Positions 56,532-60,120 of a stretch of DNA of 64,000 nt are shown here, piece by piece (the first letter of the stretch is position 1; every line of letters starts with the position of its first letter). The notes beneath the pieces were generated by a model, which did not search any database, was not told the origin of the DNA, and worked only from the letters and a program-made list of their open reading frames with translations. The stretch is from positions 62,970-126,969 of the IMG/VR virus record IMGVR_UViG_3300027754_005988, one strand, 5' to 3'. The stretch comes from a virus. The position numbers and the translations under genes were made by a program.

Positions 56532-57536
56532 ATGGCAAAAAGAGATTATTATGAAGTGTTAGGTGTAAATAAGAATTCCTCTGCTGATGAGATTAAGAAA
56601 AAATACAGACAGTTAGCCAAGGAATTACACCCAGATAAGAACAATGGTAGCAAAGAAGCTGAGGAGAAGTTTAAAGAAGTTTCTGAGGCTTATGAAATAC
56701 TTTCCGACAACGATAAAAAGGCTAACTATGATAGATTTGGTCATAGTAATGGTAGACAAAGCCAACAGGCCCAATATCATAGAACACAATATAGACAACC
56801 AGAAAGATTTGGTGAGAATATGCAGATGGTTGTTAAATTAACCTTAGATGAAATATATACTGGTGTTAAAAAAAGATTTAAGTACAATAGAAATGACAAA
56901 TGTGAATCCTGTGATGGACATGGTGGTCATGGTAAAAAAGATTGTGGGACTTGTGGTGGTAGTGGGTTGGTAACACATGCGATTAATACACCTTTCGGTC
57001 AATTCTCAAATATAACACAATGTTATTCATGTAATGGTATCGGTTTAACATATGATAGTCAATGTGGTACTTGCAATGGTTCTGGTGTTAATGTAAAAGA
57101 AGAATTAATAGATATTGATATACCATCTGGTGTTATGGAAGGTATGTCGTTTATTATGCATGGAAAAGGTCATGCGATAAAAGCTGGTAATTCAGGTGAT
57201 TTACATGTTAAAATAATGGAATTGGCGCATAAGGTTTATACTCGTAGCGGTAATGATTTAAAAATGGTTTTAAAACTAACATACCCACAATTGGTTTTAG
57301 GTAGTAAAGTTGAATTAGAAACCATAGACGGTAGTAAAATAAGGATAAACATACCAGAATATAGTGATATAGGTAATGATTTAAGAATACAACATAAAGG
57401 ATTAAAACATTACAATAACGAAGAACGAGGAGATATATTGATTAAATTGGGAATTGATATGCCAAAAGAATTAGATGATGATACAAAAGCTGTTATTATT
57501 GATTTAAAAGAAAAATTAGAGCAAATAGAAAAATAA
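56532..57536 (+). CDS. dnaJ: DnaJ co-chaperone
   Basis: J domain with HPD; four CxxCxGxG motifs; C-terminal substrate-binding domain. Confidence 0.96.
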
Positions 57537-57547
57537 AAATATTTTTA

Positions 57548-57579
57548 GTTGCAAGATAAATAATTAAATAGTATATTTG
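57548..57579 (+). promoter_or_regulatory. Bacteroidota-type early promoter of the clpP operon
   Basis: GTTG-N20-TATATTTG. Confidence 0.8.
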
Positions 57580-57611
57580 TAAAAATAATATAAACAATAA
57601 AAATAAAACTT

Positions 57612-58067
57612 ATGGCAAAATACGAAGAAGTATTCGAAGACACACAAGATTTGTACACTAGATTAATCAACGAAGCTAGTTTAAATCATGTTAACATTAC
57701 AATCTTAGCTGATAATAAAGCTAAAGAAATTTATAAACTTAATAAAGCTAATGCATTATTAAAGTTCAGAAGTGGTGATGATATCATTATAGTTTTAAAT
57801 GAAAAGATTTTTGAAAAACTAACACAAGAGCAACAAGTTATCATTGCTGAAGAATCATTGGCTGGTATTAGTTATGATGGTGAAAATGATAAAATTGAAC
57901 TTAAAAAACCAGACTTTACTGCTTACACTGGTATTTTGCGTAAGTATAATTATGAAACTGTTGATACTTTAAGAGAATCAATTATATCATTGTATCAAGC
58001 TGAAAAACAAGCTGAAGATGAAGCTAAAAATGCAAATACACCAAAAACAAAAAAACAATATTCATAA
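57612..58067 (+). CDS. Phage putative-metallopeptidase-family protein with degenerate active site
   Basis: IFEKLTQEQQVIIA-EESLAG...PDF...GILRKY resembles W..L..EQ..AL.DHEL.H...PHD...IV.RY, but the His ligands are absent. Confidence 0.5.
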   Translation: MAKYEEVFEDTQDLYTRLINEASLNHVNITILADNKAKEIYKLNKANALLKFRSGDDIIIVLNEKIFEKLTQEQQVIIAEESLAGISYDGENDKIELKKPDFTAYTGILRKYNYETVDTLRESIISLYQAEKQAEDEAKNANTPKTKKQYS

Positions 58068-58369
58068 TGACTAGAGAAGATGCAGAAGAATTAATAAGTG
58101 AGTTAAATCCAGAAGCGTTATTTCTAGATGGTTTCGATGATGCTATATTAGGTATAGCCGAAAGACCTAATTTAGGTCCAGTGGTGGCTTATGATGAAGA
58201 AAAGATAATAGCCATTCTTGTAGAACAAATGGAACCAGACTCTGAAGATTTAATTGATAGAGATGTTTTTGAACTTAAAATGGAAATGGCTCTGGATTAT
58301 TATCATTATAACATCAAAAACGCATGGGTTGGTGAATATACACCAATGATTATAACAACAAATATTTAA
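58067..58369 (+). CDS. Conserved-looking phage hypothetical protein (100 aa)
   Basis: ALFLDGFDDAILG...VAYDEEKI...YNIKNAWVGEYTP; TAATG-coupled. Confidence 0.75.
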   Translation: MTREDAEELISELNPEALFLDGFDDAILGIAERPNLGPVVAYDEEKIIAILVEQMEPDSEDLIDRDVFELKMEMALDYYHYNIKNAWVGEYTPMIITTNI

Positions 58370-58375
58370 TAAAAT

Positions 58376-59092
58376 ATGAATTTTACTAACGAATTTAGAG
58401 ATTATGCTATTAAGCATATGGGGGTTTCTTCAATGGAATTATATTATTGGGAACAATTACAAGATAATATATATAATTCTACTAAAGTGTTTGGTAGTAT
58501 GACACCTATGATTCTAGAAGAAAGAGAATTGAGAGTAACACAAATGTCAGTTTTCGATAGATTGATGATGGACCGTATTATTTGGTTAGCTGGTCCAGTT
58601 AATGATAGAATGAGTACAGTCGTACAAGCGCAGCTAATGTTCTTAGATAACTTAGAGGTAAAAGATATAACCCTTCATGTAGATAGTCCAGGAGGAAGCG
58701 TTAAAAGCGGTTTATCGATAGTTGATGTTATGGATTATATTTCATCTGATTTGGTTACTATTAACACTGGGATGGCTGCATCTATGGGTAGTATTTTATT
58801 AGGTGCTGGTACAAAGGGTAAAAGACATACACTTCCACATAGTAGAGTGATGTTACACCAAGTATCTACTGGTGCATCTGGTAATCTACAAGATATTAGA
58901 GTATCAATTGCTGAAGGTGAAAAATACAATACTGAGTTATTCAGATTATTAGGTAAGTATACTGATAAAGACCCTAAACAAGTTTTAGATGATACCAATA
59001 GAGATATGTGGCTTAATGCTGATGAGGCTTTAGCTTATGGTATCGTTGATAATATTATAACAAAAAAACCCACTAAAAACGGTAAAAAATAA
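58376..59092 (+). CDS. clpP: ATP-dependent Clp protease proteolytic subunit
   Basis: DSPGG, GMAASMG (Ser), MLHQ (His), RDMW (Asp). Confidence 0.96.
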   Translation: MNFTNEFRDYAIKHMGVSSMELYYWEQLQDNIYNSTKVFGSMTPMILEERELRVTQMSVFDRLMMDRIIWLAGPVNDRMSTVVQAQLMFLDNLEVKDITLHVDSPGGSVKSGLSIVDVMDYISSDLVTINTGMAASMGSILLGAGTKGKRHTLPHSRVMLHQVSTGASGNLQDIRVSIAEGEKYNTELFRLLGKYTDKDPKQVLDDTNRDMWLNADEALAYGIVDNIITKKPTKNGKK

Positions 59093-59094
59093 TA

Positions 59095-59116
59095 AATGGG
59101 GGTTAATCCCCCCATT
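59095..59116. terminator. GC-rich hairpin immediately after clpP (terminator or processing stem, no U tract)
   Basis: AATGGGGG-TTAATC-CCCCCATT. Confidence 0.6.
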
Positions 59117-59124
59117 AATTAATT

Positions 59125-59540
59125 AGGTGGCTAATCAAAACTAAAAAAAAGAAAGGAAAATAAAATGGAAACAATGATAATAGTATCAGTTTTAACTACT
59201 CTATGTGTTGGTGCAATAATTGCTTCACTTGTGATTGCGTATATGAAGTTAGATAGAAAAGTTGATGTTACAGAATATGATAATAATATTCTTGATGTTC
59301 GTAGAAGAATTAATGAAGAGTCAAAAATGATATTTGACCTAATAGATGCTAATGTTAGAAGCTTAAATTCAGACATTGAAGCTCTACATAGAAGAATTGA
59401 TGAAGCAAAAAATCAACAAGATAAAATAGGTGAAGAGTTAAGAAGCCTTATTGATTCTAGATGTGATAAATTGGATAATAAAATAAAAAAGAGTGGTAAA
59501 ACATTACTTAATGATTAATAAAAAATAAGGTTAGCCACCT
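59125..59540. repeat. Long-range inverted repeat flanking ORF 59165-59518
   Basis: AGGTGGCTAA(TC) at 59125-59136 versus (GG)TTAGCCACCT at 59529-59540, followed by TTTT. Confidence 0.75.
59165..59518 (+). CDS. Membrane-anchored coiled-coil protein (117 aa)
   Basis: N-terminal TM IIVSVLTTLCVGAIIASLVIAY, then heptad repeats. Confidence 0.75.
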   Translation: METMIIVSVLTTLCVGAIIASLVIAYMKLDRKVDVTEYDNNILDVRRRINEESKMIFDLIDANVRSLNSDIEALHRRIDEAKNQQDKIGEELRSLIDSRCDKLDNKIKKSGKTLLND

Positions 59541-59564
59541 TTTTAATAAAAAAAATAAAACATA

Positions 59565-59595
59565 CTTGCTTTTTATTAAAACTATAGTATATTTG
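59565..59595 (+). promoter_or_regulatory. Bacteroidota-type early promoter of the tmRNA
   Basis: CTTG-N19-TATATTTG, 25 nt upstream of the predicted mature 5' end. Confidence 0.8.
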
Positions 59596-59620
59596 TATAA
59601 TAAAAGTTCTTTAAAATTCT

Positions 59621-59977
59621 GGGAATGCCAAGGTATTGATTAGGTATAGTCGTAAATGGTAAGCATGTAGTGCTAGATTGGAAGCACTTAAATCTGTCTA
59701 TTAAACAATTGAATTGACAACGATTTCATCGTATCAGAAAATTTCCTTAACGAGTGCAGCATGTCTGTAATCGAGGGAGAGGTAGCAGCTGCCTAACAAC
59801 TGTAAATGGTGGTAATCCACTAAATGATGGTATCCCATCAATGGTAGTAATCTACTAGTGGGGCCAAAACCACTATAAAAGTAAGGAAGCTTTCGGATAG
59901 TTATAAAACTATGACCTAAACATGTAGAAGGCTATTGAAGAATATTTAAGACAGGAGTTCGAGTCTCCTCATTTCCA
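59621..59977 (+). ncRNA. ssrA: tmRNA (transfer-messenger RNA)
   Basis: Acceptor stem GGGAATG/CATTTCC-A with G3.U70; T arm AGGAG-TTCGAGT-CTCCT; pk1 GTGCT/AGCAC + AGATT/AATCT; CTAAACATGTAG; tag ORF 59716-59796 ending GCA GCT GCC TAA. CCA not encoded. Confidence 0.93.
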
Positions 59978-60067
59978 CAGTGAATGTTTTGTGCTTTGTT
60001 GATATTTATAGAGTACAAAATTCTTTACAGATTCTTCCCAACAATCACCTTATGGGATAGAAATTAT

Positions 60068-60102
60068 AACCTCTAGTAAGTCGCTTTACTAGAGGTTTTT
60101 TT
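60068..60102 (+). terminator. Intrinsic terminator downstream of the tmRNA
   Basis: AACCTCTAGTAAG-TCGC-TTTACTAGAGGTT-TTTTT. Confidence 0.85.
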
Positions 60103-60120
60103 ATAAAATAGATTTTCATA

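Follow-up and report, generated by a model that had tools for sequence, protein, structure and literature searches.

A jumbo-phage tmRNA with tandem mini-hairpins and no pseudoknots downstream of its tag

The tmRNA gene and its phage neighbourhood

The window analysed here is a stretch of 64 kb, the last part of a 127-kb IMG/VR virus record with a CheckV completeness of 36%. The G+C content is even across the window, at 25-32%, and to the left and right of the tmRNA almost every larger gene lies on one strand. The gene content is that of a large phage, with a replicative helicase, a ribonucleotide reductase, a baseplate wedge protein and an SbcC-like nuclease. The tmRNA gene lies at the end of a same-strand block (56532-59980), made up of dnaJ, a metallopeptidase gene, clpP, a small non-conserved ORF and the tmRNA itself (Table 1).

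No convincing sigma-70-type promoter was found just upstream of the tmRNA, the count of promoter-like sites being at the level of shuffled sequences. On the other side, a terminator-like hairpin stands about 90 nt past the gene, given which the primary transcript probably needs trimming at its 3' end.

Table 1. Features of the tmRNA locus, numbered by position in the window
Feature	Position	Strand	Description
dnaJ	56532-57536	+	Pfam DnaJ, DnaJ_C, DnaJ_CXXCXGXG
Phage metallopeptidase gene	57612-58067	+	Pfam PhageMetallopep
Phage clpP	58376-59092	+	Pfam CLP_protease, 1.1e-56
One-piece tmRNA gene	59621-59980	+	Rfam RF00023
Acceptor stem, 5' strand	59621-59627	+	pairs with 59970-59976; includes G3·U
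Helix 2, 5' strand	59663-59668	+	pairs with 59920-59925; closes the pseudoknot/tag ring
Pseudoknot 1 (PK1)	59670-59695	+	stem 1 59670-74/59683-87; stem 2 59675-79/59691-95
Tag reading frame	59716-59796	+	26 codons; resume codon GAC; stop UAA 59794-59796
Helix 5, stop codon in loop	59785-59803	+	59785-88 with 59800-03
Mini-hairpin A	59807-59822	+	6-bp stem, 4-nt loop 59813-16; -7.0 kcal/mol
Mini-hairpin B	59825-59840	+	6-bp stem, 4-nt loop 59831-34; -6.7 kcal/mol
Mini-hairpin C	59842-59857	+	5-6-bp stem, 4-nt loop 59848-51; -4.5 kcal/mol
Hairpin D	59856-59875	+	5-6-bp stem, conserved 8-nt loop 59862-69; -7.5 kcal/mol
A-rich linker	59878-59893	+	weak 5-bp hairpin at most; -1.7 kcal/mol, z -1.1
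Hairpin E	59895-59916	+	6-bp stem, 4-nt loop, 2-nt bulge, two outer G-C pairs; -3.9 kcal/mol
T arm	59953-59969	+	5 bp, 7-nt loop
Acceptor stem, 3' strand	59970-59976	+
Intrinsic-terminator-like hairpin, T run	60068-60104	+	13-bp stem, T-rich tail, ~90 nt past the tmRNA

The RNA matches the Rfam model RF00023 over its full length (model positions 1-374) with 70.2 bits, the cut-off being 47, and its relatives score between 54 and 86 bits. Pairing in the core was counted on an alignment of 55 homologues (A1). The third pair of the acceptor stem, the G3·U70 pair by which alanine identity is set, is G·U in 53 of these and G-C in the other two. Pairing of the T arm reaches 98.5%, with all five pairs changed on both sides, and that of the inner part of helix 2 reaches 99.4%. 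As for pseudoknot 1, stem 1 covaries and is 97.5% paired; for stem 2 the figure is 75.8%, on an alignment that was not fitted to structure.

CCA is not encoded after the discriminator, and only some of the relatives encode it. The discriminator A at 59977 probably forms the mature 3' end. Many tRNA-like genes depend on the CCA-adding enzyme, and a missing encoded CCA does not disqualify the RNA, as it is not a defining feature of tmRNA. By its tRNA-like domain, PK1 and tag, the window RNA is a tmRNA, and the absence of pk2-pk4 is a variable, non-defining feature of the family.

ARAGORN reports no such gene in the window and, among the first 80 loci, finds 32 of about 70 that bear a homologue. 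Rfam and nhmmer find tmRNAs that ARAGORN misses, both in the window and at these loci (L002-L081), and such tmRNAs are therefore probably under-counted in phage surveys based on ARAGORN.

A protein search with ClpP gave at least 599 matching viral stretches, and 80 viral loci were kept. The ClpP relatives at these 80 loci have 62-83% identity and many lie on contigs of 200-380 kb. In most of them nhmmer places a homologous tmRNA just downstream of clpP, and the clpP-linked contigs include 360-380-kb records rated complete. The ORF found between clpP and the tmRNA in the window is not conserved, having one weak relative only, and was dropped as a conserved partner. A sequence pattern from the PK1 region was used to scan viral contigs and one-per-species GTDB genomes; it occurs on 60 viral contigs, as against a single 20-kb contig in the GTDB set. 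The final set of homologues holds about 70 distinct sequences. A blastn search of the tmRNA against GenBank phages gave no match, and neither did the exact T-arm pattern in IMG/VR.

Since the homologues are linked to clpP and the PK1 pattern is nearly confined to viral contigs, we assign the tmRNA to a jumbo-phage clade and not to a host at the edge of a prophage. The record does carry the IMG/VR class label 'provirus', and ssrA is a common integration site, both of which would suit a host ssrA next to an integrated prophage. That origin is nonetheless extremely unlikely, as the place beside a phage clpP is kept on most of the 80 viral loci, the complete 360-380-kb records included, the PK1-region pattern is essentially viral-only, and neither the even G+C content nor the shared strand of nearly all larger genes is interrupted around the tmRNA.

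One 20-kb contig (C233, locus L143) in an assembly named 'Gammaproteobacteria bacterium' (G005) bears a phage-type tmRNA of this family. No second tmRNA above threshold was found in that assembly. Phage DNA that entered the bin is the probable explanation of the contig, which as a hint to the host is weak at best.

The SmpB gene is not on the 127-kb record of the window, which is a 36%-complete fragment. SmpB is encoded by four related records (G001, G002, G004 and G006), two of which are rated complete, and G006 belongs to the window's own hairpin-array subclass. One complete related record has no SmpB, and no phage clpX turned up in the five related records searched. An SmpB supplied by the host would serve as well. 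The block of dnaJ, clpP and tmRNA, with SmpB elsewhere in the genome, suggests that these jumbo phages bring their own proteostasis and ribosome-rescue kit.

The tag is 25-26 codons long in all 70 homologues, and in relatives ARAGORN gives the matching frame. Column entropy by codon position is 14.1, 11.6 and 21.8, so that the third position is the most variable, and because variation is concentrated there the tag is taken to be kept as a peptide. Its middle is conserved acidic or aromatic, and the C-terminal end is small-hydrophobic and varies among relatives; such an end would fit a degron unlike the common bacterial one. The first tag codons (59719-59731) are able to form a 5-bp hairpin. 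Relatives seem to retain a hairpin there, with differing stems, as judged by eye on alignment A1 with no formal count.

These properties of the tag bear on whether the RNA is a decayed tmRNA or a decoy, which performs no tagging but titrates SmpB or competes with host rescue, its hairpins being the debris of former pseudoknots. A decoy would account for the failure of ARAGORN, for the CCA that is not encoded and for the absence of pk2-pk4, and a phage RNA with little beyond a tRNA-like domain is known, according to Hudson et al. 2014 (PMC4131195). We consider this very unlikely, as the tag frame is intact in 70 of 70 homologues with variation of the coding type, and the resume region, PK1, helix 5 and G3·U are all conserved. 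The hairpins, moreover, are under compensatory selection with no decay, as described below, and SmpB is encoded by relatives. The window tmRNA instead looks functional, as far as can be read from its G3·U pair, T arm, PK1 and codon-constrained tag and from SmpB in relatives.

Hairpins and pseudoknots downstream of the tag

Downstream of helix 5, the window tmRNA has no pseudoknots, and three tandem mini-hairpins (A, B and C) and two further hairpins (D and E) are found instead. Tandem Repeats Finder reports 59803-59857 as a repeat of period 18 with 3.1 copies. In a repeat search the 18-nt copies start at 59805, 59823 and 59840, and copy 3 has 89% identity to copy 1, the two differences between them turning a G-C pair into an A-U pair. 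The units are 17-18 nt long and fold alone as a 6-bp stem with a 4-nt loop (z between -3.6 and -4.5), and for the post-tag stretch as a whole z is -3.0 relative to dinucleotide shuffles.

The last base of mini-hairpin C is shared with hairpin D, whose position is the slot of an H-type pseudoknot in sister subclasses. The A-rich linker between D and E folds little better than chance, with 34 of 200 shuffles as good, and was not counted as an element.

Pairing of the local hairpins was assessed on an alignment of 37 homologues with mini-hairpins, 35 of them distinct (A2). Helix 5 and hairpins A-C together are 94.7% paired, compared with 81.4% in shuffles, and 16 of their 20 pairs are changed on both sides (106 cells), which none of 500 shuffles reaches. 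When the registers were slid by 1-3 columns as a control, at most 50% remained paired. RNAalifold, run unguided, returns the same four helices.

Taken one by one, helix 5 is 88.5% paired in A2, with three of four pairs changed on both sides. Mini-hairpin A is 97.7% paired in the 35 sequences and 91.6% family-wide (55 sequences), with five of five pairs changed on both sides in either set. Mini-hairpins B and C are 93.7% and 98.1% paired in A2, and the pairs changed on both sides are four of six and four of five. Within the window's subclass, hairpin D is 89.3% paired (15 members), with three of five pairs changed on both sides, and hairpin E is 96.2% paired; for the two as a set, no shuffle out of 500 is as good. 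Most family members have a hairpin at the position of E, with stems of many kinds. The outer E pair 59896-59915 gives the strongest covariation of the region, being GC in 9 sequences, CG in 10, AU in 4 and UA in 4.

The three repeats of about 18 nt, the two pair-converting differences between the first and the third, and the two further hairpins had all been described in the first-pass annotation, which read the changes as selection on structure; the repeat searches, the folding and the covariation agree with it on each of these points.

Hairpins A, B and C also have a consensus in common beyond pairing. Conservation reaches 94% at the two bases that precede the stem, and the loops start with U-A in 94-99% of units, loop positions 3-4 being variable. 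A mid-stem U-A pair never or hardly ever varies across units, and the stems retain purine-rich 5' strands and pyrimidine-rich 3' strands.

Elsewhere in the record, the hairpin motif gives three matches within about 800 bases and one single match, all inside coding sequence. The three lie outside the window (G000:C1:3200-4500), in the gene of a protein with many short tandem repeats that looks to be of the fibre or adhesin type, and they are chance matches within coding sequence. In IMG/VR, hits to the hairpin 16-mer are close to the estimated chance level, and a tmRNA was present at only 3 of 108 new loci.

Pseudoknots were searched for with stems of at least 4 bp, a limit below which shorter stems, as well as tertiary contacts, are invisible. 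No H-type pseudoknot scoring 22 or above was found in the post-tag part of the window. Single-sequence pseudoknot scores are noisy in A+T-rich RNA, shuffles often being equal, so we relied on position-constrained searches and covariation. The Rfam alignment of the pk2-pk4 region has low posterior probability and is unusable for mapping pseudoknots to elements. Within the window's subclass, the position-constrained search of the D region gave no compatible stem pair for 11 of 14 members; within the sister subclass, the same search gave a stem pair for 17 of 20, often beating nearly all shuffles. The earlier failure to build canonical pseudoknots here is thus matched by both searches.

Two specific pseudoknots were tried and rejected. 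A strand-swapped pseudoknot between units is 79.5% paired, compared with 80.6% in shuffles, and shows no covariation, so the compensatory changes are specific to each hairpin. Pairing of the D loop with 59891-96 is 75.7% paired in the 15 members, compared with 74.3% in shuffles, and 137 of 500 shuffles are as high; this pairing also competes with the strongly covarying 59896-59915 of hairpin E. Neither pseudoknot is therefore supported by the alignment, in which standard pseudoknots formed by loop pairing would have undone the initial description. When every pair of columns was scanned, no other stacked pairs with covariation emerged.

We think it quite unlikely, then, that canonical-like pseudoknots or tertiary pairings do form and were missed, whether as three-bp stems or as loop-loop contacts. 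The best candidate is the D loop (59864-68) with 59891-96. Pairing over 5 bp, interrupted by one bulge, is possible for them in the window and in four close relatives, a subgroup in which the loop is conserved. Across the 15 subclass members the same pairing is at shuffle level and conflicts with 59896-59915, the 4-nt loops of A-C are too short for a second stem, and the column-pair scan found nothing else.

Pseudoknots are present in sister subclasses. Some related phages have three mini-hairpins and one pseudoknot. In the sister subclass with a stem pair in the D region, both stems differ complementarily between members, for example between L007 and L023, L020 and L123. Another subclass has two mini-hairpins followed by two pseudoknots, and the 7-bp second stem of the first pseudoknot changes compensatorily among L052, L143 and L142. 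The deepest group has hairpin A alone and then two pseudoknot-like elements. The tmRNA family is thus a graded series, with the window at its pseudoknot-free end.

Origin and possible role of the hairpin array

The array appears to have grown by tandem duplication of an ancestral hairpin A, with pseudoknots lost alongside. We infer this from the shared unit consensus, the period of 18 and the variation in unit number, from one to three, among members. That the change ran towards duplication and pseudoknot loss is read from a tree of the core part that is midpoint-rooted and weakly resolved, and this direction is not proven. Architectures are interleaved on this tree, with at least 14 changes.

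The first-pass annotation had spoken of a pk2-pk4 region replaced by the hairpins. Sister pseudoknots at the same places favour this wording. Hairpin A, however, is ancestral to nearly the whole family and is present beside two pseudoknots in some members, so for this hairpin there was no recent replacement.

Locus L077 (5108-5474) is a mosaic, in which the tRNA-like part and the tag go with the deep clade of one hairpin and pseudoknots and the post-tag module is near that of the window, and this suggests recombination inside the tmRNA gene. Together with the interleaved tree, it indicates that the post-tag module turns over quickly, and the module is probably exchanged by recombination. At another locus, L207 (2400-2660), the match to the family profile is limited to its first ~100 positions, and the hairpin motif appears about 145 nt beyond them; an insert may interrupt a tmRNA gene here.

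As for function, we hold it probable on balance, from sequence comparison, that this is a working jumbo-phage tmRNA in which the hairpins stand in for pk2-pk4, used with SmpB and in tagging linked to ClpP. A structural stand-in for pk2-pk4 is the most likely role of the hairpins themselves.

The tmRNA ring (PK1, tag, helix 5, pk2-pk4) wraps the head of the 30S subunit. By its coordinates in the window, the ring that starts with PK1 and ends at the 3' strand of helix 2 measures about 250 nt. The E. coli ring is of similar size, the longer tag of the phage offsetting its shorter post-tag region. As compact modules resistant to nucleases, the hairpins would close the ring that runs from PK1 via the tag to helix 2 and set its spacing, and the ring closed in this way would wrap the 30S head during trans-translation. 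Hairpin A, about 11 nt past the stop codon, would occupy the usual place of pk2 at the mRNA entrance when the ribosome terminates. The host AlaRS would charge the RNA, SmpB, for which at least four relatives carry a gene, would be its partner, and stalled products would be tagged for a ClpP-based protease, clpP being the upstream neighbour.

A purely structural role leaves one observation unexplained, namely the near-invariant unpaired bases (94-99%) of the three units, whose stems have turned over. This consensus beyond pairing, in the flank, the mid-stem U-A pair and the U-A loop start, is what one would expect if the array were a multivalent platform recruiting several copies or domains of one protein, either a phage protein or host S1, SmpB or RNase R. 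Such a platform would give the phage tmRNA stability or preference over the host tmRNA. The first-pass annotation had proposed a multivalent protein-binding array of this kind, and the conserved unpaired bases are a hint in its favour. We regard it as an unlikely reading, with a modest chance of being right. No candidate binding protein was found, the ORF between clpP and the tmRNA lacking conservation, and the motif occurs outside the tmRNA only in coding sequence of the record, with no enrichment of it in other viral contigs. Close relatives have anything from 1 to 3 units, with pseudoknots in the same slots, as expected of interchangeable spacers. The transition-only changes in the stems are also expected from neutral compensatory evolution via G·U intermediates.

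A more far-reaching form of this idea, which we consider doubtful, is that the duplicated U-A-loop hairpins form an array on which a protein of the phage or the host docks specifically, making up a rescue system that is apart from, or preferred over, that of the host and is tuned by a copy number of 1-3. If so, the tmRNA, the phage SmpB, the phage ClpP and the long private tag would act as a separate system. The structural stand-in remains our preferred reading.

Comparison with known systems

The window tmRNA resembles canonical tmRNA, such as that of E. coli, in its tRNA-like domain with G3·U, its T arm and long helix 2, in having PK1 just before the resume codon, in its tag frame with the stop codon in helix 5, and in its length of about 360 nt. 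It differs from it in having no pk2, pk3 or pk4, and five hairpins instead, three of which are tandem duplicates. The tag has 26 codons, whereas a canonical one has about 10, and the gene is borne by a phage and adjoins clpP.

tmRNAs that have lost or reduced pk2-pk4 are in themselves well known. In the survey of Burks et al. 2005 (PMC1168896), pk4 is reduced to a single helix in alphaproteobacteria, pk2 is missing in Rickettsia, pk3/pk4 are missing in cyanobacteria and plastids, and betaproteobacteria have a short extra hairpin, 6d. These natural tmRNAs with a reduced ring are like the window in that pk2-pk4 elements are lost or reduced to a helix and the gene is retained. In them, however, a single element is lost or reduced, in cellular or organellar lineages, whereas in the window all three are gone from a one-piece RNA. 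The phage family also differs from them in its duplicated hairpin unit as the replacement and in having intermediates among close relatives.

It had also been asked at the outset whether such an architecture might be the norm in Bacteroidota. In Table 1 of Burks et al. 2005 (PMC1168896), the Flexibacter-Cytophaga-Bacteroides group appears with the full set of four pseudoknots, which speaks against this; that the host belongs to Bacteroidota is itself an assumption. As to the suggestion that the architecture may be undescribed, a search of open-access text yielded no account of pk2-pk4 giving way to an array of tandem-duplicated hairpins; the loss of pk2-pk4 itself is not new.

Among phages, tmRNAs are known from the mycobacteriophage Bxz1 group, Bacillus phage G and huge phages, and in large phages they are sometimes accompanied by SmpB and ClpP (PMC4131195, PMC7162821, PMC12484599). 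In the available parts of these accounts, the genes and tags are listed and the pseudoknot region is not described. Compared with the phage tmRNAs as presented there, the window family is set apart by its long tag, its fixed synteny with clpP and its hairpin array. Hudson et al. 2014 (PMC4131195) is the source for strong inhibition of tmRNA by a molecule similar to the phage RNA that has little beyond a tRNA-like domain.

Outside tmRNA, the array calls to mind the protein-sponge RNAs. In CsrB and RsmZ, a single RNA carries several short hairpins that have a loop motif in common. The window array differs from these in having neither the GGA loop motif nor a known partner and in lying inside a tmRNA ring, and the resemblance is just that.

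Lastly, the array can be set beside experiments on E. coli, in which PK2-PK4 proved interchangeable in vitro, and single strands could take their place (Nameki et al. 2000, cited in PMC3985003); the same text has PK2-PK4 aiding folding and processing. What pk2-pk4 do has been a puzzle since in vitro work showed that they can be replaced. Those constructs support the reading that any module which spaces and closes the ring can substitute for pk2-pk4. The constructs are artificial and were studied in vitro, whereas the window holds a natural solution under selection. It shows how little of the pseudoknot ring is needed. Furthermore, the phage family provides a natural series, in which the same slots hold two, one or no pseudoknots, with small hairpins instead, and the role of pk2-pk4 is thereby testable by swapping natural modules.
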